DNA of 64,000 bases from Candidatus Latescibacterota bacterium (GTDB lineage Bacteria; Krumholzibacteriota; Krumholzibacteriia; WVZY01), in NCBI GenBank assembly GCA_011772205.1, contig WVZY01000077.1, positions 9,145 to 73,144 on the forward strand. The letters are read 5' to 3'. Every line of letters starts with the position of its first letter. Within the stretch, counting starts at the first letter, position 1. A program made the translations under genes and the position numbers. This document shows positions 8,876 through 30,059 of this stretch, piece by piece. The notes beneath the pieces were generated by a model. The model saw only the letters and a list, made by a program, of their open reading frames with translations. It was not told the origin of the DNA and searched no databases.

Positions 8876-9490
8876 TCAACCGCTCCTGTGCATTGTGGCT
8901 AGTTGCTTGATGAGCGTGTGGGCGTAACTTTCAATCTTCAATGTCAACGCATCCACTCTCGAATCGAAGAAATTGTAAGCGATCAGCGCCGGAATGCCGA
9001 TCGAAAGGCCGAATGCCGTCGTAATCAGCGCCTCGGCGATCCCTCCTGAAAGGAGGCCCGCCTGGCCGACACCGGCAATACTGATCACGGAGAACACCTT
9101 TATCATCCCCAGCACGGTTCCCAGAAGGCCCAGCAGCGGACTCGCCGCTGCGACGGTCTCCAGGACGACGAGATATCGCTCCAGGCGCTTCATTTCGCGG
9201 CGGCCCGTATCTTCCATCGCCTGGCGGACTTCAAAGGGCGTCGAATTGGCTTCCTCCAGCCCGGCACGGATCACATTTGCAAAGGGGCTGTCGTAGCGCT
9301 GGCAGAGCTTGATTGCCATCGGTATGTCCGATGGTTCTTTCACTGATTCGATATAATTCACAATCTCGTTTTGAATCACACGGCGGTGCTGGAGATTGAC
9401 TGCCTTCTCGATTACGACTGCCACTCCCATTATCGAGAGCAGCCCGAGGGGGATCATCACTACCCCTCCCTTGACCAAAATCGCCCACAT
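8876..9490 (-). CDS. exbB: MotA/TolQ/ExbB proton channel protein
   Basis: SPLLGLLGTVLGMI; GIAEALITTAFGL. Confidence 0.92.
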   Translation of the reverse strand: MWAILVKGGVVMIPLGLLSIMGVAVVIEKAVNLQHRRVIQNEIVNYIESVKEPSDIPMAIKLCQRYDSPFANVIRAGLEEANSTPFEVRQAMEDTGRREMKRLERYLVVLETVAAASPLLGLLGTVLGMIKVFSVISIAGVGQAGLLSGGIAEALITTAFGLSIGIPALIAYNFFDSRVDALTLKIESYAHTLIKQLATMHRSG

Positions 9491-15886: not shown

Positions 15887-16043
15887 GACTGCTCATATCA
15901 TATGGATCGTATGCAGCGGAATCCACGCAAAAAAAGAGAGGCTCTATTTTTCAAGAGCCCCTCCCCCATTCCCCAAGGAATTTGTGCTTCAGTATCGCTC
16001 AAGGACGCTTCCGTCCGTGCGGCGGTCCTCAATCGTCGAGCGC

Positions 16044-16394
16044 TTAATCTATGTGGCCGGTCTCCGGAGGAAAGTGCCTCGTCTCGAGAAGATTCCCATC
16101 ATCATCGAACCAAAACTCGAGACCACGGCTGTAATATTTCCACCGCTCGGTTTTCTCGCCACAGAAACTGAATCTGAGACGATGCGGCGTGTAGCCGTAT
16201 TCGTCAAATATGGCCAGCTTGTCGCCCTTTAGATTCTCTCGCAGCGAAAACCGCCGAGCGTATTTCCGGCCTTTCTTGCCCCTTAGGTAGGTTACGCCGG
16301 AACGTTTGAACTTAACGTAATCCCGTCCTAGAGCGAACGTGTCCCCCGCCAAGAACAGAAAGACACAGGCCAGTAATAGGACCCTGATTCTCAT
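16044..16394 (-). CDS. Small exported protein with possible SmpA/BamE-like C-terminal domain
   Basis: Signal peptide; GYTP...ERWKYY...FWFDDDGNL; own SD and promoter. Confidence 0.6.
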   Translation of the reverse strand: MRIRVLLLACVFLFLAGDTFALGRDYVKFKRSGVTYLRGKKGRKYARRFSLRENLKGDKLAIFDEYGYTPHRLRFSFCGEKTERWKYYSRGLEFWFDDDGNLLETRHFPPETGHID

Positions 16395-16467
16395 AGCCGT
16401 TGTCTCCTTGATGCAGTTGCCAAAGTTGCGGGCTATTTAGGGGGTGGGCCATTCCTCAAGACACCTT

Positions 16468-16497
16468 ATTATACCATATTTGGAGCCACGGTGGCAA
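16468..16497 (-). promoter_or_regulatory. Sigma70 promoter with extended -10
   Basis: TTGCCA-18nt-TATAAT, TG at the extended -10 position. Confidence 0.6.
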
Positions 16498-16695
16498 GGG
16501 CTTGAATGGGGCTTCCTTATGCGGAGAAACGAGGTTTGGAGGGCTCCAAAAAGGAGGATTTTTCCGGGCAGTTTCTTGCGATTGCCAGCTCCGAGGGGAT
16601 CTGTTTTTGCATCTGCTTTTCTCGAAAAAATACGGACTTATCGGATATTTATCGCGTTTTCGCCAACATCACGAAATGCTTGCGAGATGGTTTGC

Positions 16696-19600
16696 TTACT
16701 TTAGCAATATCATCTTTCTTGTTTTAACAAACTTCTTCGTTACGAGCTTGTAGAAATACACGCCGCTCGAGACCGGCTGTCCTGCATCGTTGCGGGCGTT
16801 CCAGCCTTTGGCATATTCACCCGCGGGATTCTCCTCGTTTACCAGCGTCTTCACCAGCTGCCCGGCGACGTTGTAGATTTTCAACGTCACATGGGCCCGT
16901 TCCTTGATCGAGTATTTGATTGTTGTGCTCGGATTGAATGGGTTCGGGTAGTTCTGGGCGAGGCTGTTTGTATAGTAGGGGGTGGCGTCTGCGCCTGAAG
17001 GATCTTCGACGGGTAGGCTAAATAGATGCCGCAGGACACTGACCAGGTGATCCACACGATCAGGCACTCCTGCAGGAACATCGTCACGGATATAATGGAA
17101 GCTAAAGCCTGAGAGGACCACGGCAACCGGGTTGCCCAGCGCGTTCAACGTGTCGTACGCCACAACGGCACCGTCGTTCGCAGCGCCCGAGCCCCCGTAC
17201 GTCATCTCCAGGGTCGTGCTCGCGACCGGCCGGATCACATCGAAGTCATTGATGCCCGGACAGCCGCCGTAGACAACGATCGTGTCTTCCTCGAGTGGAA
17301 CACCGTGATCGAAGATCCCGCCATCCTCACCGATCACCAGCGGCGATATAGAGAAGCTCACCGTGTGATCATCGTCCACCAACTGGTACGGAATGTACGT
17401 GCTGATGAACTGGGACGAGGACGGATTCGTCAGCGTTTCCCATTCTGAGGCCATGTTATCGCCGGAGAAGTAGATACCGGCTCCTACTGGGTCCGGATGC
17501 TGATCCATGAAGAAATAGAGCATCGCGAAGTCATCCGTCTCGTTCGCGCTCATGTCACCAACCGTACCTCTGTTGAGGTTACCGGAGTTCCAGATAATCT
17601 TCCGGTAGTTCGGGAATAGCTGGTTTTGAACACTCCACATACGACCTGTAAGACCATTTCCGACCAACGAAGACGGCCCGCGCTTATCGAAGCGGTCGAC
17701 CCAGTCCATGATCCCTATCATCTCGAACGCGGAATTGAAGTATGGCTCGGCACCTCTGCCGCTGAATTGATCAACATATAGGATGTTTCCGCCGTATCCA
17801 CTGGGCAGGATCTGCATCTCCATCGGGGCCGCGCAAGCCTCTTCGATATCGTCCACTGTGCCGGTGAATTGGCTCCACCACGTCGAAGTCACGTTGGCAT
17901 CCGTCGCACCGAAAAAGAACCACAAGGTGTCTCCGTTGGTGAAGAAATGATCATTCACATCGATGCAAAACCTGTCAGGCGCAGGACCGGTGCGAGGACC
18001 GCTATGCTCTGTAAAACACGTGTCGAGACGGAACTGATACCACTTCCGGCTGCCACAGATCACCGAGTCGACAACCGGCCAGCGATAACTATCCTCCACG
18101 ATCTTATCGAGCGGCATCGGCTTGCTCTGAGGATCGCGGGAGAGATAGAAATAAACCGCAGATCCAAAACCGGTGTTCGGATCGCTCCCGAGGCCAAATG
18201 TCGGCTCGCTCACGGTAATGATTGCCGAGTCACCCGGTACATTATGTCCATCTAGATAAGATGTGATGTCGATCGCCGCACCGATTCTGGCCGTCCCAAG
18301 GGAGTCACCCCCCTCGGGAAAGGTATCGTTGAAAAGATCGATGTCTCGAACGCTGAATTGCGGACCCGTTACTCTGACCCGGATGAACCTCACGTTGTCG
18401 TAAAGAGGCCCATGCCTATGGCAGTCGGGTGGCTGGTAGGAATTGCAATAGAAACCGCACAGATCATAGCACCCGAGCGCGAGCTGTATCTGTTCAGCTC
18501 CCGGATCTATCAAGTCTGCATAACTTTCAATCCATCGATGCCACCTTGGACCGTATCCGAAATTAATCCAAGCACGATCTCTCCAGTCTCCAGGGCAGCC
18601 CCCAATCCAGGTCCGGGCATGCCAGATAAAAGCGACCAATTCGGTGAAGGGATTGTCTTCGTATACGTCTATTTCGAAATACGCAGCATCTGCATCAGAT
18701 GGAACGGGACTGCCGTAAATGTCCGTATCCCAATCAATGAGCGGCGACCAGATCTCATTCGTGAGATAAAGCATTCCTCCATCCACTTCCTTCCCATATG
18801 GCACCGCTTTCTGTGCGGGATGGCCGGCACAAGCCATGTCGACCGTCGATCCCTTGAAGAATCCCCACAGAAAAGAGAGATTGTGCACGCAGGGATCTTC
18901 TTGGAGGACGGCACTTCCAGGGAACAGCCCCGCAAAATCCCCGTATGCCAGTTTGGCGTCTGCGTACCAATCTCCATCGGCTGTTGCCGTATCCCCAACC
19001 GCTTCCGATTCGAAATCCTGGTAGTCGAGCGTGCTCGCAGTATCCGACACGAGGATGCTGTCGATGACGATCGCTCCATCGGAGTTATACATCCCATCTT
19101 GATCGGACCAGCCAGTATCGGAGTCAAAGCGGAAACGAAATATCACCGAACCATCGAGCGAGTCTGCCGGTACGGTCAGGTTTGCCGTGATGTCCCCGTC
19201 TCCATCCAAAGCGAGCAAGTCAACCCATGCACCGTCCTTATTTCTGTATTGAACATACGTGTAGTCGCAGTATGGCTCGGTATCATGATGTGCTTTGAAG
19301 GAGAGTGTCACATCGCCGCTGGTTGCAAATTCAACCGACTGGAACCGCTGGCCCCATGAATTTCCATACCCGGGCAGTTTCTTGTACGAGCAGAGATAGG
19401 TATCCGAGGCATTCGGCCTGGCGCCGCACCACAGGGACTGGTTCCCTTCGATTGGCACCAATCCGCCAAAGTCGCCACCATTCAATCCTGAAAAATCGTC
19501 CACATGGAAAAACACTCCCATAGGAGCTGTGAGATCAACGCCGAACCAGCCCTGCGGATCAGCCATGCCCGGGCCATCAAAATCAAAATCTGCCAGCACA

Positions 19601-19788
19601 AATGTTTCCACAACAGCTGTAGCGAAAAGCTCCCTCGCATCCAGCGGCATGTCGCTTCCTGTGTTGTACTCGTGAAAGATGTATCTCTTAGGGCTGCTCT
19701 TTTCAGGAGCCTTTCGCGCGAAGCTCCCCCAGGAAACCAGCATCAATGTCAACACCGCAATAAAAAGGCAAATCCATCGCCGTTTCAT
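16696..19788 (-). CDS. Large secreted Cys-rich protein, paralog A, with C-terminal FlgD-Ig/T9SS type A-like sorting domain
   Basis: AAGGAGG SD; signal peptide; MAM/InhA-like FRFRFDSD...GAIVIDSI; C-terminal LAQNYPNPFNPSTTI...SSGVYFY...KMILLK. Confidence 0.88.
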   Translation of the reverse strand: MKRRWICLFIAVLTLMLVSWGSFARKAPEKSSPKRYIFHEYNTGSDMPLDARELFATAVVETFVLADFDFDGPGMADPQGWFGVDLTAPMGVFFHVDDFSGLNGGDFGGLVPIEGNQSLWCGARPNASDTYLCSYKKLPGYGNSWGQRFQSVEFATSGDVTLSFKAHHDTEPYCDYTYVQYRNKDGAWVDLLALDGDGDITANLTVPADSLDGSVIFRFRFDSDTGWSDQDGMYNSDGAIVIDSILVSDTASTLDYQDFESEAVGDTATADGDWYADAKLAYGDFAGLFPGSAVLQEDPCVHNLSFLWGFFKGSTVDMACAGHPAQKAVPYGKEVDGGMLYLTNEIWSPLIDWDTDIYGSPVPSDADAAYFEIDVYEDNPFTELVAFIWHARTWIGGCPGDWRDRAWINFGYGPRWHRWIESYADLIDPGAEQIQLALGCYDLCGFYCNSYQPPDCHRHGPLYDNVRFIRVRVTGPQFSVRDIDLFNDTFPEGGDSLGTARIGAAIDITSYLDGHNVPGDSAIITVSEPTFGLGSDPNTGFGSAVYFYLSRDPQSKPMPLDKIVEDSYRWPVVDSVICGSRKWYQFRLDTCFTEHSGPRTGPAPDRFCIDVNDHFFTNGDTLWFFFGATDANVTSTWWSQFTGTVDDIEEACAAPMEMQILPSGYGGNILYVDQFSGRGAEPYFNSAFEMIGIMDWVDRFDKRGPSSLVGNGLTGRMWSVQNQLFPNYRKIIWNSGNLNRGTVGDMSANETDDFAMLYFFMDQHPDPVGAGIYFSGDNMASEWETLTNPSSSQFISTYIPYQLVDDDHTVSFSISPLVIGEDGGIFDHGVPLEEDTIVVYGGCPGINDFDVIRPVASTTLEMTYGGSGAANDGAVVAYDTLNALGNPVAVVLSGFSFHYIRDDVPAGVPDRVDHLVSVLRHLFSLPVEDPSGADATPYYTNSLAQNYPNPFNPSTTIKYSIKERAHVTLKIYNVAGQLVKTLVNEENPAGEYAKGWNARNDAGQPVSSGVYFYKLVTKKFVKTRKMILLK

Positions 19789-20091
19789 CAGCTTCCTCCT
19801 TATTGAAGAGAATCACCCATGAATTTGAAAAGCAGTAACTCCCGTATTCCCCGCCAAATGAACTTGTACTCCTTGCTGGAAATGATGGAATCAACATTTC
19901 GCGGGCTGCAGTTCAATGCGAGGCGCTGTATGAAGTCGCGGCAGTGATGTAAAGAAAAATGAGAGAAGAGATCAGTCGGTGAAGCAATCCAGGTAGTCAA
20001 CGAGAATGCACCTCGCACCCTATGTTTGCAGGTGCGCGGGAGAGGTGCACGACAGAACATCTGCCTTCCCCCCCAGGTAGTCGGCTGATTC

Positions 20092-20123
20092 ATTATATTA
20101 CCATAGATTACTTTAATTTTCAA
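20092..20123 (-). promoter_or_regulatory. Sigma70 promoter for paralog A
   Basis: TTGAAA-17nt-TAATAT with TG extension and an overlapping TATAAT. Confidence 0.6.
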
Positions 20124-20325
20124 GGAATCACTTAATTCGCAGCGCCCTCGACCTCCTGCGAAAAAATCTCCTTGTCCTGCTCCAGCGACATCCCTCAGAA
20201 TCCCCACGTAAGAGCCGATCTCACAGGCGTCTGAGCCCTGACAGAGGTGCTCGACCTCCTGGCCGGCTTCTTGCAATCAGAAAAATGATAACCCATTGTG
20301 AATAAAAATCATCCAGTAGTCAGCG

Positions 20326-22137
20326 ATGCGTGAAAACCAGCATAACGCTTCCCTTGAGAGTGACTTTACGCTCGAAGCCGTGGCCGGCGCGCTCGGGCGC
20401 TCCGGTTTTCTCAGCCTCCCGCAAATCAAAGAGATATCCAAGTCTTCCGTCGTGAAGCGAGCACACCTCAGGAACAAGCTCAAAACCAAGGAGTCCGATA
20501 AGCCTTTCGTGTCACCGGTCGAGATCATTGCCGAATTTGGCTTTCCGAGCACGAATCCCCGGCGGGATCAAATGGACGAAGCCGAGATCTGCGAGGCGCT
20601 CTCTAGAACGATGAATGTCCCGTTCGTTCGGATCGATCCTCTGAAGCTCGACGTAAAAAGTGTTTGCAGCATCGTTTCCAAACCGTTTGCCCGAAAACAT
20701 CTTCTCGTCCCCATCAAGATCAAAGGCGGGGCGCTCACCGTTGCCATGGTGAATCCATTCGACCGCGAAATGATCAACAGCCTCGAAGACGTTACCGGCT
20801 GCACGGTGGTGCCCGTACTCGGGATGAGGAGCGAGATTCTAAAAACGATCAACGAGGTCTTTGCGTTCGAGCACAGCCTGATGAAAGCAGAGAAGCTCCG
20901 GGATGCCGGCTATGACCTGGGAAATCTCGAACAGCTCGCCGAAATGATGACCGAGGAGGAAATCGACGCCTCCGATAAACACATCATCAAAGCCGTCGAC
21001 CTGCTATTCCAGTATGCATATGAACAGCGGGCGAGCGACATCCATCTCGAGCCGAAGAGGGACAAAGGCGTGGTGCGCCTTCGAATCGACGGCAGGCTCC
21101 ATGACACCCACTCGATTCCCAAAAAGATCTACCCTTCTTTCGTTTCTCGAATCAAGATCATGGCACGGATGGACATCGCTGAGAAGCGCAAGCCTCAAGA
21201 CGGACGCATCAAAACGAGCTCAAAAGATGCCGAGGTGGAGCTCCGTGTTTCCATTGTTCCCGTCGCATTCGGGGAAAAGATCGTCATCCGCATATTCGAT
21301 CCCAGCGTTCTCATGCAGGATCTCTCCTCGCTCGGGTTTTTCCCCGATCAGCTGGAGGCGTTCCAGAGATTTTTACACCGTCCATACGGCATCATCCTCG
21401 TCACCGGACCGACGGGGAGTGGGAAAACGACGACCCTTTACTCGGCGCTTCGGTATCTGTCGAATCCGGAAGTCAACATTACGACGATCGAGGATCCCAT
21501 CGAGATGATCTATGAGCCGTTCAATCAGATCGCCGTTCAGTCCCAGATTGGCATCACGTTCTCCACCGCTTTGAGGAACGTCCTCCGTCAGGACCCGGAT
21601 ATTATTATGGTCGGAGAGATTCGCGATCGAGAGACGGCCGAGTATGCGATCCAGGCGGCTCTCACGGGCCATCTGGTTCTTACGACACTCCACACGAACA
21701 ACGCCGTTGGAGCCGTTACGCGGCTTACGGACTTGGGAGTGGAACCGTTTCTCATTGCATCTACGGCTCTCGGTGTGATTGCCCAGCGCCTTGTCCGGAT
21801 GGTGTGCAAAGAGTGCGATGTTCCCGCCCAGATCTCTGAAGAAGAGAAACGTCTCCTTTGCCTAGAAGATGACGTTGATCTTTCTAACTTGCGCGCAGGA
21901 AAAGGATGCGAGAAGTGCCGCAATACGGGCTATAAAGGACGCACAGGGGTTTACGAAGTTTTGGAAGCAACGGAGGAAATTCGCCTGCTAGTCAGGGACT
22001 GTGCGGATGAGAAGGACATCGAAAGAGCTGCGCGGCGCTCTCAGATGAGACCGCTCCTCTCGAGCGCGATAGAGAATCTCATTGCCGGAAAAACGACGGT
22101 TGAAGAGATTTTGCGCGTCGTTCCGCTGGCCGGATAA
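20326..22137 (+). CDS. GspE/PulE/PilB-family secretion or pilus ATPase
   Basis: ASDIHLEP, RKPQDGRI, GPTGSGKTT, TIEDPIE, LRQDPDIIMVGEIRD, TGHLVLTTLH, CKEC/CEKC zinc site. Confidence 0.95.
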   Translation: MRENQHNASLESDFTLEAVAGALGRSGFLSLPQIKEISKSSVVKRAHLRNKLKTKESDKPFVSPVEIIAEFGFPSTNPRRDQMDEAEICEALSRTMNVPFVRIDPLKLDVKSVCSIVSKPFARKHLLVPIKIKGGALTVAMVNPFDREMINSLEDVTGCTVVPVLGMRSEILKTINEVFAFEHSLMKAEKLRDAGYDLGNLEQLAEMMTEEEIDASDKHIIKAVDLLFQYAYEQRASDIHLEPKRDKGVVRLRIDGRLHDTHSIPKKIYPSFVSRIKIMARMDIAEKRKPQDGRIKTSSKDAEVELRVSIVPVAFGEKIVIRIFDPSVLMQDLSSLGFFPDQLEAFQRFLHRPYGIILVTGPTGSGKTTTLYSALRYLSNPEVNITTIEDPIEMIYEPFNQIAVQSQIGITFSTALRNVLRQDPDIIMVGEIRDRETAEYAIQAALTGHLVLTTLHTNNAVGAVTRLTDLGVEPFLIASTALGVIAQRLVRMVCKECDVPAQISEEEKRLLCLEDDVDLSNLRAGKGCEKCRNTGYKGRTGVYEVLEATEEIRLLVRDCADEKDIERAARRSQMRPLLSSAIENLIAGKTTVEEILRVVPLAG

Positions 22138-22384
22138 AATTCGTTCGTCCACTATCCGGATACGCACCCTACGGCCTATTGCTTGGCAAAGACGATACGA
22201 CCACTGGCTGCGTAAACTTCGCACAATCGCTGGGCAGGCAAACACCATACAGCCGCTGTCCGGGCAAGCAAAACTTATAGATGCGACAATACGAAGGGGC
22301 ACTCCGCGCCTCAACATCTCGCTGAAATCGCGTCGTACCCCCTCGCACGATCTTAACCAGGCAAATCTTCCCTCTGCTCTCCCC

Positions 22385-25300
22385 CTACTTCAAAAGTATC
22401 ATTTTCTTCGTCTGCGTGAAATTCTTCGTCACAATTCTGTAGAAGTACACGCCACTGGAGACCGGATTGCCCTCGTCGTTGCGGCCATTCCATCCCTTGG
22501 TGTATTCTCCCGCAGGCTTCTCCTCGTTCACCAGCCTCCTCACCAGCTGACCCGCCACGTTGTAGACCTTCAAGGACACATGCGCACGCTCCTTGATCGA
22601 GTACTCTATGGTGGTAATCGGATTGAACGGGTTCGGGTAGTTCTGGGCGAGGCTGTTCGTGTACCGTGGCGTTTCGCCAATTCCCGTGGGATCCGAGGGA
22701 AATGATACCAGGTGCCGGATGATATCGACCAAATGATCGTCACGATCCGATAGCGGTGCAGGAACATCGTCGCGGATGTAGTGGAAGCTGAATCCAGAGA
22801 GTACTACGCTGACCCGGTTCCCCAGTGCGTTCAACGTGTCGAACGCCACAACGGCACCGTCGGTGGCCAAACCTGTACCACCATAGGTCATCTCCAGACT
22901 CGTTCCTCCTGCCGGCTGAATCACATCGAAGTCATTGATCGTCGGACAGCCGCCGTAGACAACGATCGTATCTTCCTCGTCCGGCACACCATGGTCGAAG
23001 ATTCCTCCATCCTCGCCAATCACCAGCGGCGACTTGCCGTGGCTGCCGGTATGATCGCCGCTGACCAGATTGTGCGAAATGAACTTGTTGATGAAGGCTG
23101 ACGAGGAGGGATTGGTCAAGCCGGCCCATTCCTCGGCCATGTCATCACCGGAGAAGTAGATCCCTTCCATGGTCGGATTTGGATGCTGATCGAGGAAGAA
23201 GTCGAGCATCGCGAAATCATCCGCTTTAATATTGGAGCCATCCCCCACCGTCCCGCTGGAAAGATCTCCCGAATTCCATATGATCAGTTGGTAATTCGGG
23301 TGGAGCTGCTGTGCAACGTCTCGCACGTGATATCCTAAAGCATCTGCCGATAAAGGACCCACAAATGCACCACGCTTATCGAATCGATCAACTAGATGAT
23401 CGATCTCCAATATTTCAAACGCGGAATCAAAGTATGGCTGAGCTCCACCAGCGTTGAATTGATCGACATAGAGAATATCTCCCCCTCTCGCCGGACCTGC
23501 ACCTGGGAGAATCTGCATCTCCATAGGCGCCGAGGCAGCCTCTGCGATATCCCATGTCGTACCGGATCCCTGACTCCAGTAGGTTTCCTCGCCCAATGTG
23601 TTCTCAGCACCAAAGAAGTAGTACAGCGTATCGCCGTTTGTAAAGAGGTGGTCGTTTACATCGATACAGAATCCGTTAACGCGGATGGATACGCACGAAC
23701 CATTGGACCTGGTACAAGCCGTATCGCAACGGAATTGATACCATTTCGTGCCGCTAATGACCGTTGAATCGACCAGAGGCCAGCGGAAGCCGTCTTCTTC
23801 CAGCATATCCCCCATTTTCCCTGGCTGGCTCGGTGGATCGATTGAAAGGTAGCAGTAGACGGCCGAGCCAAATCCGCTTTTCGGATCGGGCTCCTTGAGA
23901 CCGGCGTCCGGATCGTAGCAAGTTACAACCGCTGAATCGCCAGGTATAATGTTTGGGTCACTATAGGCTATATCGTGCGCCGCATCGATACGACCTGTTC
24001 CTAAAGATGTCCCATTCTCGGGGAACGTATCCTGGAAAAGGTCTAAGTCACGGGCACTCCACTGGGGGCCGTTCGTCGAAATACGCCGGATCTCGACATT
24101 ATCGAACAGCGGCGAATGGCTGTGGCAGGGATCGAGAGAACCGTCAAAAAACCATTGCATATCCACAACGCCCAACGCAATCTGTATGTGAGAAGCGCCC
24201 GGATCGATATATTCACCTAAGGTGTAGGTGCTTCTGGACCAATCCTTGCGGGGACCATAGTAGATTCCAGATCCCTGGTCTTTCCACTGACCGGGACATC
24301 CATCTTTCCAGGATCGAACGTCCCATGTGTAATAGACGTAGAGGCCTGGCAGATCCCGGTACACATCGAACGATAACTCGATTGTCGATCCAACTCCGGC
24401 CAGAGCAACCGGTGGTGACCAGATCGAATTAGTGATGTATTGGTCATACTCGTTCTTTTTTGGAACCGCAATCTGTTCGGGGTGGCCGCCACAAGCGTAG
24501 GTTTCAGTAGATCCCATGATAAACGCCCACATGCAGCTGTAATTCCAATGGCAGGGATCTTCCTGCAGCAACGCTGAGCCTGGAAAGAGACCGGCAAAAT
24601 CCCCGTACCCTGACTTTACGCAGCATTCCCAGTCGCCGTCCGTGGTGGCCAGATCGCCAGGGGACTCATCCTCGAAATCCTCGAAGTCATAAGTAGTGAG
24701 AGCCGTCTGTACGGTAATGCTGTCAACCAGTACGGCCCCGTCCGTGTTCAAGAAGCCGTCTTGATCTGAATACGCACCATCGGATCCGAAGTGGAAACGG
24801 ATTTTTACGAAACCATCGTGTCCAGCAGGGATGGCGTCGGTCCGCAGCTGTTTGCTCCCAGTACCGTCGAATGTCGCGATGTTAACCCAATCATCACTGG
24901 CGATATCATCAATGTTTTCTATGGAGTCGCACGAGGTATTCGTCGCATATTCGAGGTATGTTTGGTCAAATCCCCCTTCAGAATCCCACGCGATGAGATA
25001 GCTGATAGCAATCGCCTCAGTATCCGGCACCTCAATACACTTGAAGCACCACCCTTGATCCCAGTCGTTTCCATACCCAGGCAGTGCGGCGTAGACACAT
25101 AAGACAGGATCTGCGGTATCCGGCCGCGCGCCGCACCAGGCCGATTGGTCGCCTTCCAAAGGCACTAGGAGGCCGAAGTCCCCTCCGTCAAGACCTGTAA
25201 AATCATCGACATGGAAGTAGCAGCCAAGTGCTGCTGTCCAGTCTTGACCGGTCCAACCTTCGTTCGTACAAAACACACCTCCCACATCAAATGTCCAGGA

Positions 25301-25507
25301 GCCAAGGATGACCGTGTCCGCCTGTAAGTATGACCTGAGTCCCTGCTCTTCCAAAGGACGATCCAAATCCAGGACGCTTAAAGGCTCTGGCTGTATTTCC
25401 CAGTTGGCTGGATTTCGCTCTTGAGAGACTTTGCGCGCAGATAGAAGCGATGCTAGCAAAGAGATCATCACCAAAGCGAACAACGTTTTTCTCGTGAAGG
25501 CGCTCAT
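22385..25507 (-). CDS. Large secreted Cys-rich protein, paralog B, with C-terminal FlgD-Ig/T9SS type A-like domain
   Basis: AAGGAGG SD; colinear with paralogs A and C; NYPNPFNP...KKMILLK. Confidence 0.88.
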   Translation of the reverse strand: MSAFTRKTLFALVMISLLASLLSARKVSQERNPANWEIQPEPLSVLDLDRPLEEQGLRSYLQADTVILGSWTFDVGGVFCTNEGWTGQDWTAALGCYFHVDDFTGLDGGDFGLLVPLEGDQSAWCGARPDTADPVLCVYAALPGYGNDWDQGWCFKCIEVPDTEAIAISYLIAWDSEGGFDQTYLEYATNTSCDSIENIDDIASDDWVNIATFDGTGSKQLRTDAIPAGHDGFVKIRFHFGSDGAYSDQDGFLNTDGAVLVDSITVQTALTTYDFEDFEDESPGDLATTDGDWECCVKSGYGDFAGLFPGSALLQEDPCHWNYSCMWAFIMGSTETYACGGHPEQIAVPKKNEYDQYITNSIWSPPVALAGVGSTIELSFDVYRDLPGLYVYYTWDVRSWKDGCPGQWKDQGSGIYYGPRKDWSRSTYTLGEYIDPGASHIQIALGVVDMQWFFDGSLDPCHSHSPLFDNVEIRRISTNGPQWSARDLDLFQDTFPENGTSLGTGRIDAAHDIAYSDPNIIPGDSAVVTCYDPDAGLKEPDPKSGFGSAVYCYLSIDPPSQPGKMGDMLEEDGFRWPLVDSTVISGTKWYQFRCDTACTRSNGSCVSIRVNGFCIDVNDHLFTNGDTLYYFFGAENTLGEETYWSQGSGTTWDIAEAASAPMEMQILPGAGPARGGDILYVDQFNAGGAQPYFDSAFEILEIDHLVDRFDKRGAFVGPLSADALGYHVRDVAQQLHPNYQLIIWNSGDLSSGTVGDGSNIKADDFAMLDFFLDQHPNPTMEGIYFSGDDMAEEWAGLTNPSSSAFINKFISHNLVSGDHTGSHGKSPLVIGEDGGIFDHGVPDEEDTIVVYGGCPTINDFDVIQPAGGTSLEMTYGGTGLATDGAVVAFDTLNALGNRVSVVLSGFSFHYIRDDVPAPLSDRDDHLVDIIRHLVSFPSDPTGIGETPRYTNSLAQNYPNPFNPITTIEYSIKERAHVSLKVYNVAGQLVRRLVNEEKPAGEYTKGWNGRNDEGNPVSSGVYFYRIVTKNFTQTKKMILLK

Positions 25508-25687
25508 TTCCCGACCTCCTTCAAGAAATGATTGTGATGATAATGAAATAAGGGATAGAAGAGGAAGAATTCTTGTAGCGGGCTTCTTTGAAGATTAAAG
25601 ATCTCCACAAGCCGTTCCGGATCACGGGACAGGATCCAAATAGGACTGGGCTTGTGGGTCACGCAACGAAACAAGACCGCCGCCCCC

Positions 25688-25736
25688 GTTCAATAATTGA
25701 ACTATTTTTTGTATCATATAATTCCGCAAAATTCAA
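25688..25736 (-). promoter_or_regulatory. Promoter for paralog B with a 7-1-7 palindromic operator candidate
   Basis: TTGAAT-17nt-TACAAA (TG-extended); GTTCAAT-A-ATTGAAC at 25688-25702. Confidence 0.45.
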
Positions 25737-25923
25737 TCATATAAGACGCTAAATTCTTGGCTCGTCCTGCCCTGCAGTCATCTTATTAAATCAGAAACTT
25801 ACTCGATCCTAACTGCTTACCACGTAGGCGATTTCCTGCATCCCATGCATTCAATCATCAAAAAAACGTGGGCCTGTGAGTCAATCACCGGCCCTGGTTC
25901 CATCCCTCGATTCGAATCCATTC

Positions 25924-28900
25924 TTACTTCAAAAGTATCATCTTCTTCGTCTGCGTGAAGTTCTTTGACACAATTCTGTAGAAGTACACGCCGCTGGAAA
26001 CGGATTCACCCGCATCACTGCGGCCATTCCATCCCTTGGTGTATTCTCCAGCAGGCTTCTCCTCGTTCACCAGCGTCCTCACCAGCTGACCCGCCACGTT
26101 GTAGACATTCAAGGACACATGCGCGCGCTCCCTGATCGAGTACTTGATCGTCGTACTCGGATTGAACGGGTTCGGGTAGTTCTGGGCGAGATCGTTCGTG
26201 TAGTGCGGTGTATCGCCTGCTCCAGTTACATCGGGAAGAGTATGCCTGAGAAAATGGAGAATGTCCCTCAAATGATCAATGCGATCTTTTACTCCCAAAG
26301 GAAGCCCATTATCTCGAATGCAGTGGTAGCTGAATCCGGAAAGCACCACCCCGATAGGATTCTCGAGCGCGTTCGTCGTTTCATATGACACCACGGCACC
26401 GTCGGTTGGATCATTCGTGCCGCTGTACGTCATTTCGAGATTTGCGCCGCCTAACGGCTCGATCATGTCGAAATCATTGATGATCGGGCAGCCGCCATAG
26501 GCAACGATCGAGTCGACACCCCAATAATAAGTGTCGAAGATCCCGCCAACCGTGCCCGCCACCAGCGGCGACACGTCATGGTTTACCGTATGGTCGCCCG
26601 TGACTAGGTTGTGCGGGATGAATTTGTCGATGAATTGAGTCGAAGAAATCCCCGTCAATTCCACCCACTCCTCGGCCATGTCATCACCGGAAAAGTATAT
26701 TCCAGCACCTATTGTGTTTGGATGCTGATCGAGGAAGAAGTCGAGCATCGCGAAGTCGTCCGTTTCGTTCGCGCTCCCATCGCCTACCGTTCCATGGGCT
26801 AGGTCCCCCGAGTTCCAAATGATCGTTCTATAAAACGGATGCAGTTGGTTCCCGATGTTGACGACACGGCCGGCAAGCCCGTTCCCAGCCAGCGAGGATG
26901 GTCCCCGCTTATCGAAACGGTCGACCTGCTCCCAAATCCCTGATTCCATGAGCGCCGTGTCGAAAAACGGCTGAGCTCCTCTCCCACTGAAGTTGTCGAC
27001 GTAAAGGATGGTCCCGCCTCTCGCCGGACCAGCACCCGGCAGAATCTGCGTCTCCATTGGTGCGGCGCAAGCTTCATTGATGTTGGCACCAATCCCGGAG
27101 CCCTCGCTCCAGTACGTCGTGTTCGCACCCGCATCGGTAGCACCAAAGAAGAACCATAGAGTGTCCCCATTGGTGAAGAAGTGGTCGTTGACATCGATGC
27201 AAAACCGGTCGTAGACCGCTCCCATCCGTGGGCCGGAGCGCCCAGAAAAGACCGTATCGCATCGGAACACATACCACTTCCGCCCATCGCAAATGACCGA
27301 ATCCACTACCGGCCAGCGGAAGCCATCCTCCACTATTTTATCGAGCGGCATCGGTTTGCTACGAGGATCGCGGCAAAGATAGAAGTAGACGGCAGGTCCG
27401 AATCCGGTATAACCATCGATCCCAATGCCCAACTCTGGCTCGCTCACCATCACAATTGCCGAGTCACCAGGAACATTGCTCCCGTCAAGATACTGTGTAA
27501 TATCGATCGCCGCATCAACTCGCCCCGTTCCAACGGCCTGTCCATTTTCAGGGAACGTGTCATTGAAAAGATCGATGTCCCGGACGCTCCACTGCGGGCC
27601 GACTGTGGAGATGCGCCGGATGATGACGTTATCAAAGAGTGGAGAATGACTGTGACACTCCCCTGGCGAACTAGAACTGCACCATAAAGGACACATATCG
27701 ATAACACCAAGTTGGACCTGAAGGTGTGAAGCCCCGGGCGCAACCAGATCTCCCACCCAGTTAACGGATGTCGCCCAATCCTTATGTGACCCATAATAAA
27801 CGAAGCCCCGACCCTTCCAATGACTCGGACAATCATCGACGATGGACCGAATATGCCATGTATAGTAGATTAAGCTTGGAATGGGGAGATCTCGATAAAC
27901 ATCGAACACAAATTCAAAGTGGGATCCGGTACCAGTGATGGCCACCAATGGGGAGCGGATGGCGTTGTTTATGTACTGACCCTGTTCGTTCCCTTTCGGG
28001 ACTGCCAGCTGCGCTGGAAATCCGCCGCACGCATATGATTCCGTGGAACCGTTGACGAACGCCCACATGCACGTGAGATTCAACTTGCAGGGGTCTTCTT
28101 GGACCAGAGTAATTCCCGGGAAAAGACCGGCAAAATCGCCAAAGCCGGACATTATACAGCATTCCCAGTCGCCATCCGTCGTGATGAGATCACCTGGAGA
28201 TTCATCTTCAAAATCTTCGAAATCATAGACGGTCAGCGCAGTTCGAACGGTGATACTGTCAACAATCACCGCACCATCTGTGTCCCACAAACCATCCTCG
28301 TCGGACCAGGCAGCATCGGACCTGAAACGGAATCGAATCTTCACATGACCCTCATGTCCTGCAGGGATGGTGCCGATCCTCAATTGTTTGCCCCCAACAT
28401 CGTCGAAGGTCGCTAGGTTGACCCAATCATCGCCAAGGATATCATCTATGTTCTGCAAGGAGTCACATGTGCTCTTTGTCGCATACTCGAGGTATGTGCA
28501 GTCAAATCCCGGTTCAGAATCCCAGGCGATGAGATAGCTGATGGCAATCGCCTCGGTATCCGGAACATCGATGCACTTGAAACACCAACCCTGATCCCAT
28601 GCATTTCCATATCCCGGAAGCTTGGCGTAACCACACAGGATCATGCTTGCCGTATCCGGTCGAGCTCCGCACCAGACTGATTGGTTGCCCTCAAGAGGAA
28701 CTAAGTTACCGTAATCACCGCCGCCCAGACCAGCGAAGTCGTCGACATGAAAATAGCAACCGGATTGCTCCGTAAGATCATGCGTCGTCCAGCCTTGAGC
28801 ATCGCACACAAGACCTGAATCGAACGTCCAATAGGCTAACACAAGCGTGTCCGCCAGAGCGGCAGATCGAGGAACCAGCACACCCGAGTGGTAATCCATA

Positions 28901-29037
28901 TCGAGGGGGGTGGAATTATCGAGCCGCATTTTGGCACGCCCCGAGTTCGGACCTACTGATGCCTCCCTCGCCATCGCCGACGCTATCGATACGGCAATGA
29001 CGATCATCATCCCGAACATGAAAGCTCTTTTCTTCAT
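25924..29037 (-). CDS. Large secreted Cys-rich protein, paralog C, with C-terminal FlgD-Ig/T9SS type A-like domain
   Basis: GGGAGGG SD; colinear with paralogs A and B; NYPNPFNP...KKMILLK. Confidence 0.88.
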   Translation of the reverse strand: MKKRAFMFGMMIVIAVSIASAMAREASVGPNSGRAKMRLDNSTPLDMDYHSGVLVPRSAALADTLVLAYWTFDSGLVCDAQGWTTHDLTEQSGCYFHVDDFAGLGGGDYGNLVPLEGNQSVWCGARPDTASMILCGYAKLPGYGNAWDQGWCFKCIDVPDTEAIAISYLIAWDSEPGFDCTYLEYATKSTCDSLQNIDDILGDDWVNLATFDDVGGKQLRIGTIPAGHEGHVKIRFRFRSDAAWSDEDGLWDTDGAVIVDSITVRTALTVYDFEDFEDESPGDLITTDGDWECCIMSGFGDFAGLFPGITLVQEDPCKLNLTCMWAFVNGSTESYACGGFPAQLAVPKGNEQGQYINNAIRSPLVAITGTGSHFEFVFDVYRDLPIPSLIYYTWHIRSIVDDCPSHWKGRGFVYYGSHKDWATSVNWVGDLVAPGASHLQVQLGVIDMCPLWCSSSSPGECHSHSPLFDNVIIRRISTVGPQWSVRDIDLFNDTFPENGQAVGTGRVDAAIDITQYLDGSNVPGDSAIVMVSEPELGIGIDGYTGFGPAVYFYLCRDPRSKPMPLDKIVEDGFRWPVVDSVICDGRKWYVFRCDTVFSGRSGPRMGAVYDRFCIDVNDHFFTNGDTLWFFFGATDAGANTTYWSEGSGIGANINEACAAPMETQILPGAGPARGGTILYVDNFSGRGAQPFFDTALMESGIWEQVDRFDKRGPSSLAGNGLAGRVVNIGNQLHPFYRTIIWNSGDLAHGTVGDGSANETDDFAMLDFFLDQHPNTIGAGIYFSGDDMAEEWVELTGISSTQFIDKFIPHNLVTGDHTVNHDVSPLVAGTVGGIFDTYYWGVDSIVAYGGCPIINDFDMIEPLGGANLEMTYSGTNDPTDGAVVSYETTNALENPIGVVLSGFSYHCIRDNGLPLGVKDRIDHLRDILHFLRHTLPDVTGAGDTPHYTNDLAQNYPNPFNPSTTIKYSIRERAHVSLNVYNVAGQLVRTLVNEEKPAGEYTKGWNGRSDAGESVSSGVYFYRIVSKNFTQTKKMILLK

Positions 29038-29258
29038 GCCATGCCCTCCCTGCTTAAGTGAGCAAAAAATGAAGATAACAATAGGTCGGCTGCGAAGGAA
29101 TACCGCTTAGATAGAGCGGTCTTAGCGAGAATAAGAAAAGCGGACATAGGACCCCTATTCGTAGGAGCAAGTGGGAATGCTCACAAATACGGACGGTAGG
29201 TTATTCGGCTTGCGCGGACGAATATGACCCTTGCCACAGCTTTCATATTGAGGTGTTT

Positions 29259-29287
29259 ATTATACCATAAATTTTAAGGACTTACAA
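29259..29287 (-). promoter_or_regulatory. Sigma70 promoter for paralog C
   Basis: TTGTAA-17nt-TATAAT with TG extension. Confidence 0.7.
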
Positions 29288-29468
29288 GTATAAGATCAAC
29301 TCAACGGGGGGAAGCTCCAAAAGCAGAATCGATGAAAGAAGGCAGAAAAATGAAGAATAACAACCTCCATAAAGAAAAGCGTTCGCAATCGAACGCCACA
29401 AGCCTTGAAAACGATTGAGGGGGGAAATATGCTGCGATTTAAATTATAATCAGCTATGTCAGTGGATC

Positions 29469-30059
29469 TTAGTCCTCCCACCTGGTGATCTTGTCGTTTA
29501 CCACATAAATATATTTGCTTCGGTTCCCTACTTTGTAGATCCATTGTTCCTCTTTATGCCCGCCAATTTCATAGGATTTGATCTCTGTGGGGATGCCCCA
29601 CGATTCCAAGGCCGCTTCGGCGTCCATGCCTATGAACACTTCGTGGTTTCGTATTGCACGTCCCGTCTTCTTCCCCCATTTCCTGATATATTCCACCTGG
29701 CGGAGCATCGGATCCTTGAACCAGAAGATATCGGCTAATCTGCTCTCAATCTTCTCGACAGTTAGCGGCCTTTCAACTTCGAGTCCGTGCACAATTTTTT
29801 TTCTCTTCGGACCCTTAACAGTAACGGATCCATTCATGTGGAAGTCCAGGTCGATGATTTCCACTTTTGTATCCCTTTGCACGATACCGTGCTGGCTGAG
29901 ATCTTCGAGTATGATGCGGGTCCAGGCCTTTTTATTTTTGTACTTCTTGATCAGTGCTTCCTGCTTCTCTATCGGAATATCCTTGATGATCGCATGCTTG
30001 ACCGATGAGCAGCTGAAAAGAACCAATATGAGAGGTAGAATCAACTTCTTCATCATCAC
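29469..30059 (-). CDS. Lipoprotein with C-terminal SmpA/BamE-like domain
   Basis: Lipobox LFSC; IGMDAEAALESWGIP...EQWIY...YIYV. Confidence 0.7.
   Translation of the reverse strand: MMMKKLILPLILVLFSCSSVKHAIIKDIPIEKQEALIKKYKNKKAWTRIILEDLSQHGIVQRDTKVEIIDLDFHMNGSVTVKGPKRKKIVHGLEVERPLTVEKIESRLADIFWFKDPMLRQVEYIRKWGKKTGRAIRNHEVFIGMDAEAALESWGIPTEIKSYEIGGHKEEQWIYKVGNRSKYIYVVNDKITRWED

Follow-up and report, generated by a model that had tools for sequence, protein, structure and literature searches.

Interlocus gene conversion very probably underlies the mosaic structure of type IX-sorted paralogs in a Candidatus Latescibacterota genome

Three long paralogous genes, here called A, B and C, lie within a 64,000-nucleotide (nt) stretch of the draft genome of a Candidatus Latescibacterota bacterium (81 contigs, 4.13 Mb). 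This stretch, hereafter the window, comprises positions 9,145 to 73,144 of contig WVZY01000077.1, or G000:C71:9145-73144 in the genome:contig:position form used below. The encoded proteins belong to a family of probably cell-surface, multi-domain proteins sorted by a type IX secretion system (T9SS), and an initial annotation had described the three genes as patchworks whose nearest relative switches repeatedly along their length. Here, we compare them with five further full-length paralogs on other contigs (D to H) and find that A, B and C are very probably mosaics produced by interlocus gene conversion among eight tandem and dispersed copies. Two events are recent: one between A and F, covering about 0.56-0.64 kb of a domain that resembles class I glutamine amidotransferases (GATase1-like), and one between E and F, running for about 0.4 kb through the sorting domain to a few bases past the stop codon. 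Several older events involve A and D, A and B, and the sorting domains of B, C, E, F and G.

Searching the whole genome with C returned 106 matches, most of which are the sorting domains of other cargo proteins. Seven of the matches are full-length frames and one further copy is split by a frameshift, the rest covering the sorting domain alone or part of the protein. The paralogs outside the window are D (on contig C73), E (C11), F (C69), G (C9) and H (C33), and in a codon alignment the eight copies are 53-67% identical overall in nucleotides and 48-65% in amino acids (aa). Two of them are broken: in G a single TAG replaces a Trp that is invariant in an alignment of 73 family sequences, and in H the frameshift falls near residue 830. 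Broken copies may still exchange sequence, since the sorting domain of G remains in the homogenised set described below. These additional copies are what makes the question tractable. Three sequences have no tree topology, and a site at which two of them agree against the third is simply a change on one branch, so the A/B/C trio alone can neither prove recombination nor separate it from a region-specific change of rate. The strongest evidence comes from D, E and F.

The identity of A to the other copies changes abruptly along the gene. In its N-terminal core (residues 113-472) A is at most 65% identical to any of the other seven copies and often only 30-50%, compared with 45-86% between B and C over the same part; a conserved stretch just upstream (residues 75-112) reaches 65-73% identity. 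From about residue 500 to 660 A shares 85-91% of its amino acids with D, and from about 700 to 880 it shares 96-98% with F. Across codon columns 766-946 the A-F identity is 93-100% at the nucleotide level, third positions included, against 35-70% elsewhere, and E and F are 98-100% identical in nucleotides from codon column 976 to the end (approximately the last 400 nt). Exact matches extend to 177 and 108 nt between A and F and to 113 nt between E and F, and no run within the A/B/C trio exceeds 38 nt. Past the stop codon, E and F have another 18 bases in common, with similar GC-rich hairpins behind them. No other pair shares DNA beyond the stop, and we conclude that the E-F tract extends slightly past the gene.

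Synonymous sites place these tracts far outside the background of the family. Synonymous divergence (dS, by the Nei-Gojobori method) is 0.05 for A-F, 0.10 for E-F, 0.30 for the sorting domains of B and C, 0.51 for the 5' shoulder of the A-F tract, 0.65 for A-B over columns 883-960 and 1.14 for A-D, while the proportion of synonymous differences (pS) elsewhere is 0.7-0.8, which amounts to saturation. We mapped pS over 2864 windows of 40 codons in all 28 pairs (median 0.75, 5th percentile 0.48), and every window below 0.40 lies at codon column 691 or beyond. These windows belong to A-F (columns 691-951), to E-F (951 to the end) and to the sorting domains of B, C, E, F and G, with D and H outside this set; the first 690 columns hold only ten windows at 0.40-0.45, which fall within the lower tail of the distribution. 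As third-position and synonymous identity of 93-100% stands here amid saturation, protein constraint cannot explain the tracts. The A-F tract starts near the beginning of the GATase1-like domain and ends inside it, so the tracts are roughly, not exactly, domain-sized. The 16 differences that separate A from F within the tract core are of all base types. A diversity-generating retroelement was considered and set aside, as these differences are not adenine-specific and the tract is 564 nt long, although no search for a reverse transcriptase was made.

Formal tests of recombination agree with the divergence map. The pairwise homoplasy index (PHI) for the eight copies lies far below its permutation distribution (z=-17.5; none of the 500 permutations reached so low a value), and it is also low for subsets of the copies (A, B, C and G, 0/500; B, C, D, E and G, 0/500; A, B, C and D, 14/500). 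A GENECONV-like maximal-fragment test on 2087 polymorphic gap-free sites in seven copies (H left out) gave 0 of 1000 permutations for 15 of the 21 pairs and 2-28 of 1000 for the other six. The leading pairs are A-F (z=127), E-F (68) and A-D (35), with A-B at z=10 and A-C at z=8.5; for many pairs of middle rank the peak falls in the sorting domain. We also built maximum-likelihood trees for seven segments picked after inspection, and these trees differ. In approximately unbiased (AU) tests segments S4 and S5 reject the trees of all six other segments at p<=0.002, S3 rejects all of them at p<0.03 and S7 at p<0.05, and the rejections by S1 and S6 are weak. Because these boundaries were post hoc, we repeated the AU test on eight equal blocks chosen blind; the global tree was rejected (p<0.05) in six of the eight amino-acid blocks and four of the eight nucleotide blocks, with a summed log-likelihood loss of 145 and 138, respectively. 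A single topology for all segments, which the initial annotation had named as the outcome that would speak against recombination, is thus rejected, even with branch lengths and gamma rates re-estimated.

Within the trio the signal is more modest. The coordinates of the three open reading frames (ORFs) given in the initial annotation and all of the shared motifs it listed are borne out by the alignment, and its three exact nucleotide identities are indeed exact and cannot be extended. We gauged these runs against a shuffle null in which the pattern of amino-acid identity is kept and only the synonymous match or mismatch of identical residues is permuted. The 38-nt run between B and C was equalled in 16 of 2000 shuffles, the 27-nt run between A and B (17257-17283 = 22943-22969) in 38, and the 31-nt run in the sorting domains of B and C (22480-22510 = 26019-26049) in 105; the best exact run between A and C is within chance (471 of 2000). 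Several of the motifs are present without being specific to the pairs to which they had been assigned. GWCFKCI..VPDTEAIAISYLIAWDSE and ILPGAGPARGG, reported as common to B and C, turn out to be family-wide features from which A is the outlier: in six of the seven other copies the former is kept at 17-26 of 26 positions and the latter at 9-11 of 11. The motifs shared by A and C likewise recur in D and partly in F. The switching of the nearest relative is nevertheless real and, once all eight copies are used, far beyond chance.

Comparison with other organisms separates the history of the N-terminal module from that of the C-terminal part. We scored 8000 candidate proteins and found at least 979 family members at E<=0.001, nearly all labelled hypothetical. 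Including the present genome, all 31 genomes of the order that were searched, none of the others from the same genus, hold the family, with 2-21 matches each that are often in tandem. In trees of single domains (121-122 sequences), the N-terminal module (C residues 60-470) of A groups with the foreign proteins P0042, P0046, P0050 and P0053 (support 0.94) and then with P0037 and P0040 (1.0); D and F group with the foreign protein P0013 (1.0), and B, C, G and H with other foreign proteins (0.76). The copies of this module therefore represent no fewer than three old lineages, all of which also have members elsewhere, in other organisms. The middle sandwich domain has a clade of A, C, D, F and P0013 (0.998). 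A clade exclusive to this genome unites A, B, C, D and F in the GATase1-like tree (0.979), with E next (0.63), and in the sorting-domain tree A, B, C, E, F and G fall together, with D and H placed among foreign proteins. The GATase1-like and sorting domains thus group by genome, which is concerted evolution limited to the C-terminal part of the protein. A itself illustrates the contrast: its N-terminal part is 57-73% identical to P0042 and 29-68% to its own paralogs, whereas its C-terminal half is 83-97% identical to D or F and 43-74% to P0042. As the N-terminal module of A is closer to foreign proteins and groups with them at 0.94 and 1.0, it is an old lineage and not a fast-evolving copy.

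Exchange is not confined to this genome. P0013 (1063 aa) is itself a mosaic, D-like over residues 1-330 (71-87%), F-like over 331-450 (76-82%) and A/D-like over about 541-570, with an end that resembles the sorting domains of E, F and A, which indicates that shuffling has also taken place elsewhere. In a related genome, G013, two tandem pairs (L120 and L121) share only their C-terminal parts, over 457 nt (89%) and 593 nt (86%). By contrast, a tandem pair in G001 is 80% identical along its whole length, which suggests a plain recent duplication. Another homolog, P0113 (44% identity), is labelled Candidatus Latescibacteria. In a wider scan of contigs the sorting-domain pattern prevailed: the matches were sorting domains of many phyla, with one full-length match (34%). 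In G016, G026, G028 and other relatives represented by fragmented drafts, many family matches start or end within a few bases of contig ends, inside genes; the family seems to break short-read assemblies, and copy numbers from such drafts are unreliable for this reason.

Within the genome under study, modules are also reused at the level of whole domains. Three partial relatives (L116, L117 and L118) combine family segments with unrelated sequence, and we read them as domain-level shuffling with a boundary near residue 480. This boundary of the reused modules (residue ~476-484) coincides with a structural boundary of the protein and with the point at which A turns from foreign-like to D-like. 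No array of silent or truncated partial donors was found in the genome-wide search: all 12 matches that reach upstream of residue 900 sit in long frames of 836-1358 aa (11 genes, one of them frameshifted). Taken together, the tracts of near-zero dS among saturated paralogs, the mutually rejected segment trees, the domain trees and the module reuse uphold the initial annotation's reading of segmental gene conversion or module shuffling.

Table. Coordinates of the paralogs, their shared segments and related loci (positions in the window unless given as genome:contig:position; G000 is the genome under study; res, residues)
Feature	Position	Strand	Observations
Paralog A	16696-19788	-	1030 aa
Sorting domain of A	16699-16971	-	protein-level cluster with B and C (0.82); synonymous sites less homogenised
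A region (res 815-906), B next nearest after F	17071-17346	-	76-82% aa, dS 0.65, z=10; holds 17257-17283
Recent conversion tract of A (res 675-887), with F (C69)	17128-17766	-	z=127, 0/1000; dS 0.05
Core of the A-F tract	17134-17697	-	16 differences in 564 nt (97% identical); longest exact run 177 nt
Older tract of A (res 547-704), nearest D (C73)	17677-18150	-	85-91% aa, 76-90% nt, dS 1.14 against a saturated background; z=35, 0/1000
N-terminal module of A (res 1-472)	18376-19788	-	lineage with foreign P0042/P0046/P0050/P0053 (0.94, 1.0); 29-68% to own paralogs
T2SSE/MshEN-type secretion ATPase gene	20326-22137	+	603 aa; PF00437, E 8e-129; between A and B, opposite strand
Paralog B	22385-25507	-	1040 aa; layout as in A
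Sorting domain of B	22388-22660	-	homogenised set B, C, E, F, G (pS 0.07-0.45); B-C dS 0.30
B counterpart (res 826-917) of the A/F-like region	22757-23032	-	holds 22943-22969
B-C 38-nt exact identity	23178-23215 (= 26717-26754)	-	12 identical codons; branch point in k=31 assembly
N-terminal region of B (res 117-304)	24596-25159	-	B and C mutually nearest, 67-86% aa; A remote (27-59%)
Paralog C	25924-29037	-	1037 aa; layout as in A; copy used for the structure model (pLDDT 87.5)
Sorting domain of C	25927-26199	-	same homogenised set as B; holds 26019-26049
GGC(P) motif (C res 848-850)	~26488-26496		nearly invariant across 73 members
C region (res 493-646)	27100-27561	-	groups with A, D, F and foreign P0013, not B; support 0.998
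C-H-x-H-x-P-x-x-D motif (C res 461-469)	~27631-27657		strictly or nearly invariant across 73 members
C counterpart (res 115-302) of the B-C N-terminal region	28132-28695	-	B and C mutually nearest
Paralog G (L006)	G000:C9:161816-164923		broken, TAG for Trp
Paralog H (L008/L012)	G000:C33:20576-23732		broken, frameshift
Partial relative L116	G000:C6:25703-29779		BNR_2/BNR-type N-terminus and family res ~290-1037
Partial relative L117	G000:C25:40515-43127		unrelated N-terminus and family res ~482-1037
Partial relative L118	G000:C59:26830-30564		family res ~58-476, unrelated part and sorting domain
Tandem pair L120	G013:C6:232800-240000		shared C-terminal part only
Tandem pair L121	G013:C17:4200-11200		shared C-terminal part only

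To gain insight into what is being exchanged, we examined the domain organization of the proteins, using an AlphaFold2 model of C built from the 73-sequence alignment (mean predicted local distance difference test score, pLDDT, 87.5); the layout of A was taken by homology to this model. The predicted order in A, B and C is a putative signal peptide, a jelly-roll module resembling MAM domains or carbohydrate-binding modules (CBMs), an Ig-like sandwich, the GATase1/ThuA-like alpha/beta domain and the T9SS type A sorting domain. The sorting domain scores above the curated cut-off in all three proteins with both TIGR04183 (43.6-44.5 bits, cut-off 23) and PF18962 (30-34 bits, cut-off 27). Pfam and NCBIfam recognise just the last ~80 residues (Por_Secre_tail/TIGR04183, FlgD_ig and CHU_C), and neither Pfam (E<=0.01) nor NCBIfam gave a match outside the sorting domain, the InhA-like MAM domain PF20773 included. 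The N-termini are basic and then hydrophobic, and in the model of C a disordered stretch follows a helix at residues 2-21. An SprA-like translocon gene is present in the genome, where a 2081-aa frame on contig C64 matches SprA_N above the cut-off (46 bits). Models of GldM_1st and PorP_SprF matched nothing in the genome, the latter absence being uninformative as the PorP_SprF control was silent in all control genomes. Related type A sorting domains close about 100 frames of the 4.1-Mb genome.

Fold comparison of the model suggests what lies upstream of the sorting domain. A Foldseek search with the whole model gave generic jelly-roll matches only (TM-score 0.09-0.16). Exhaustive structural comparison of residues ~63-480 matched jelly-roll modules such as MAM domains, CBMs and Eph ligand-binding domains (Z ~11). 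The best local match, over residues 103-295, is the MAM-like domain of immune inhibitor A2 (4yu5_A, Z 14.3), and the cleaved-adhesin domain of Kgp (4itc_A, Z 11.2) is also among the matches. A language-model look-up led to InhA-like_MAM clusters (score 0.88, a lead only) and to sister clusters labelled mostly Candidatus Krumholzibacteriota. Residues ~476-667 resemble an Ig-like sandwich (Z 10.5). In the model, residues ~672-935 are class I glutamine amidotransferase-like/ThuA-like at the level of the fold, with best matches to 3rht_A (Z 15.7, root-mean-square deviation 3.2 over 205 aligned residues), 2gk3_A (Z 15.5, the deviation of these two being 3.1-3.2) and the ThuA-like 4jqs_A (Z 13.5). 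The family alignment contains two conserved motifs, C-H-x-H-x-P-x-x-D and GGC(P), together with His922 and the nearly invariant Cys850 of GGCP; the two motifs may be metal-binding or catalytic sites. Judged by these folds, the passenger is most likely a surface-attached polymer-binding or polymer-processing protein.

How much of the pattern could be produced without recombination, by one duplication tree with rates specific to region and lineage (a fast N-terminus in A, constrained C-terminal parts), or without biology, by the assembler? For differing rates one may say that the trio alone has no testable topology, so that its pattern could in principle be rate variation, that the two B-C motifs are ancestral family motifs lost by A, and that the sorting domain is constrained at the protein level everywhere. 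Against them stand the near-identity of third positions and synonymous sites in the tracts amid saturation elsewhere, AU tests that still reject shared trees when rates are fitted anew to each segment or block, and the affinity of the N-terminal module of A to foreign proteins over its own paralogs, and we find an origin by rates alone barely credible. An assembly artefact, in which a metagenome assembler misthreaded repeats or duplicated a collapsed one and the mosaics exist only in the draft, is very unlikely. The draft does comprise 81 contigs, the A-F exact runs are at or beyond common assembler word sizes, and in relatives many contigs end within genes of this family. The relevant data come from a public run, X1, which contains 98% of the sampled words of gene A; it is possibly the source sample, and so not independent data, and its k=31 assembly differs from the draft. 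Contigs of X1 tile 16000-29500 and break exactly at words shared between paralogs, the 38-nt and 31-nt identities among them, and the core of the A-F tract forms a separate, hybrid 564-nt contig in which the variants of A and F are merged, with the letters of A at 12 and those of F at 4 of the 16 differing sites. The depth of this contig is 49.9, compared with 31-35 in its flanks. A two-copy model with the 16 observed differences makes 249 of the 534 31-mers specific to one copy and predicts a mean depth of 47-53, whereas one copy predicts 31-35; this two-copy depth in a separate assembly shows that the A/F tract itself is not an artefact. The tract contig has k-1 bases in common with each of the two A-specific flanks, and a wrong pairing of flanks would shift the A/F breakpoint and still leave a near-identical tract in two genes that are otherwise 55-80% identical. 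The older switches of A, from its N-terminal lineage to D-like and from D-like to F-like, lie inside single X1 contigs (18097-22509 and 17668-18123) and involve no repeat longer than 33 nt, and the pattern of the domain trees spans many copies and foreign sequences. Two other runs, X2 and X3, gave short, low-depth pieces only (12 and 2 records).

A different question is whether the recombination serves a selected or programmed system, with the broken G and H as donors, that varies an exposed surface protein in the manner of antigenic or phage-receptor variation; the initial annotation had likened the genes to antigenic-variation cassettes. The family is expanded throughout the order, its proteins carry a secretion and surface-attachment signal, two pseudogene copies still take part in the homogenisation of the sorting domain, and the mosaic nature of P0013 indicates that shuffling recurs across organisms. 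In addition, domain rearrangement and recombination are reported as sources of variation in the T9SS cargo adhesins of Porphyromonas gingivalis (PMC5266723). The organization of the genes argues otherwise and makes such a system quite improbable. Neither a single expression site nor any array of silent partial cassettes was found; the upstream regions (400 nt) of the eight genes are mutually unrelated and each ends in its own GGAGG-type ribosome-binding site, and several of the genes have terminator hairpins of their own. It is the anchor-proximal third that holds the recent tracts, and not the putative binding module; the low-dS tracts, which cover the GATase1-like domain, the linker and the sorting domain, homogenise the copies there and lend no support to the diversification that had been proposed. 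The X1 contigs carry no alternative letters except those of F on A, with the limit that contigs drop rare variants, and one closed relative, G010, has no recent tracts.

Gene conversion, the reading that we prefer, has its own weak points. The only run that covers the stretch well may be the source sample, its support comes from contigs and not from raw or long reads, and the pairing of the flanks of A across the 177-nt exact repeat is unconfirmed, the X1 contigs breaking at each shared 31-mer. Our PHI, fragment and dS calculations are our own implementations and not published programs, the boundaries of the seven AU segments were set after viewing the data, and half of the blind nucleotide blocks (4/8) do not reject the global tree. 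The sharing between A and C has no support at synonymous sites (pS 0.72) and is seen in protein-level trees only. Among relatives, G010 (nine copies) has no tract at 85% or above, its best being 83% over 88 nt, and G009 (five copies) has none at 82% or above, from which it follows that recent conversion is not constant in the family; recent exchange is recurrent but not universal. Finally, the non-reciprocity of the transfer, its donor and its enzymology are inferred, and neither the 8-copy nor the 122-sequence trees give a donor direction for A-F or E-F.

As to mechanism, the exchange would be of the RecA type, seeded at the conserved sorting domain and at other short identical stretches and spreading upstream from them. 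The exact runs of 27-38 nt could as likely be anchors of exchange as its products. Its net effect would be that the secretion and anchoring end evolves in concert while being reassorted against diverged, putative ligand-binding heads, through what appears to be a stochastic evolutionary process and not a programmed switching device.

Several known systems invite comparison. In the cassette systems of Neisseria (pilE/pilS), Borrelia (vlsE), Anaplasma (msp2) and Treponema (tprK), silent, promoterless partial cassettes feed one expression site at a high switching rate. The present family shares with them the segmental, homology-driven copying between related surface-protein sequences, but has neither expression site nor silent cassettes. 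In Helicobacter pylori, the adhesin paralogs babA/babB/babC and sabA/sabB undergo gene conversion, and switching has been seen experimentally within infections. As there, full-length, separately located and expressible (here predicted) paralogs swap segments, with conserved ends, a divergent binding part and chimeras. The H. pylori proteins are autotransporter-like beta-barrels of a host-associated pathogen, whereas here we deal with T9SS cargo of an uncultured environmental bacterium, and with a historical footprint in place of observed switching. The gingipain/HagA adhesin-domain proteins of P. gingivalis likewise carry a T9SS sorting signal at the C-terminus and are built of adhesin-like modules, and their diversity has been attributed to domain rearrangements and homologous recombination (PMC5266723); there the emphasis is placed on exchange between strains, unlike the domain-restricted concerted evolution of eight paralogs in one genome. 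Pfam and NCBIfam scans revealed no sequence-level family relation to these proteins. In prokaryotic concerted evolution (PMC6053082), paralogs of one genome are more alike than their orthologs elsewhere. The GATase1-like and sorting domains follow this pattern; unlike concerted evolution in general, it is restricted here to the C-terminal third, and the N-terminal module keeps its old trans-specific lineages. The case resembles the bab and gingipain adhesin families and not a pilS/vls cassette system. A literature search on type IX secretion and gene conversion gave no title naming this family or phylum, and one on Latescibacteria and type IX secretion returned no paper.

B and C are in tandem with a gap of 416 nt, and the three genes have housekeeping neighbours, which encode an aminotransferase, an amidohydrolase, a T2SSE-type ATPase, RNase HII, TrmD, RimM and Ffh. 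For the ATPase gene between A and B, no link with the paralogs came to light. No recombinase, integrase or mobile-element gene was detected among the 15 ORFs scanned near A, B and C, and with housekeeping neighbours on record a mobile element or island was dropped as an explanation.

A further reading, which we consider unlikely, would give the two regimes a purpose. Selection would keep the GATase1-like domain and the sorting end uniform and the heads diverged, in a mix-and-match surface system. The uniform end would perhaps stay matched to the cell's own T9SS and attachment machinery and offer a homology platform for reassorting the MAM/CBM-like heads, with the broken G and H as a donor reservoir. 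If this were true, it would give a free-living, uncultured lineage within-population variation of an exposed binding protein, for example as a response to phages, to grazers or to a change of polymer substrates.

Interlocus gene conversion of this kind is already known as an ordinary route of evolution in bacterial surface-protein families. What the present genes add is a clean and quantified case of concerted evolution restricted to certain domains, in a T9SS cargo family that is large, has no name and comes here from an uncultured lineage. This is a family that breaks short-read assemblies and for which whole-gene trees or orthology calls will mislead; the unit that tracks function and ancestry is the N-terminal module, not the whole gene.

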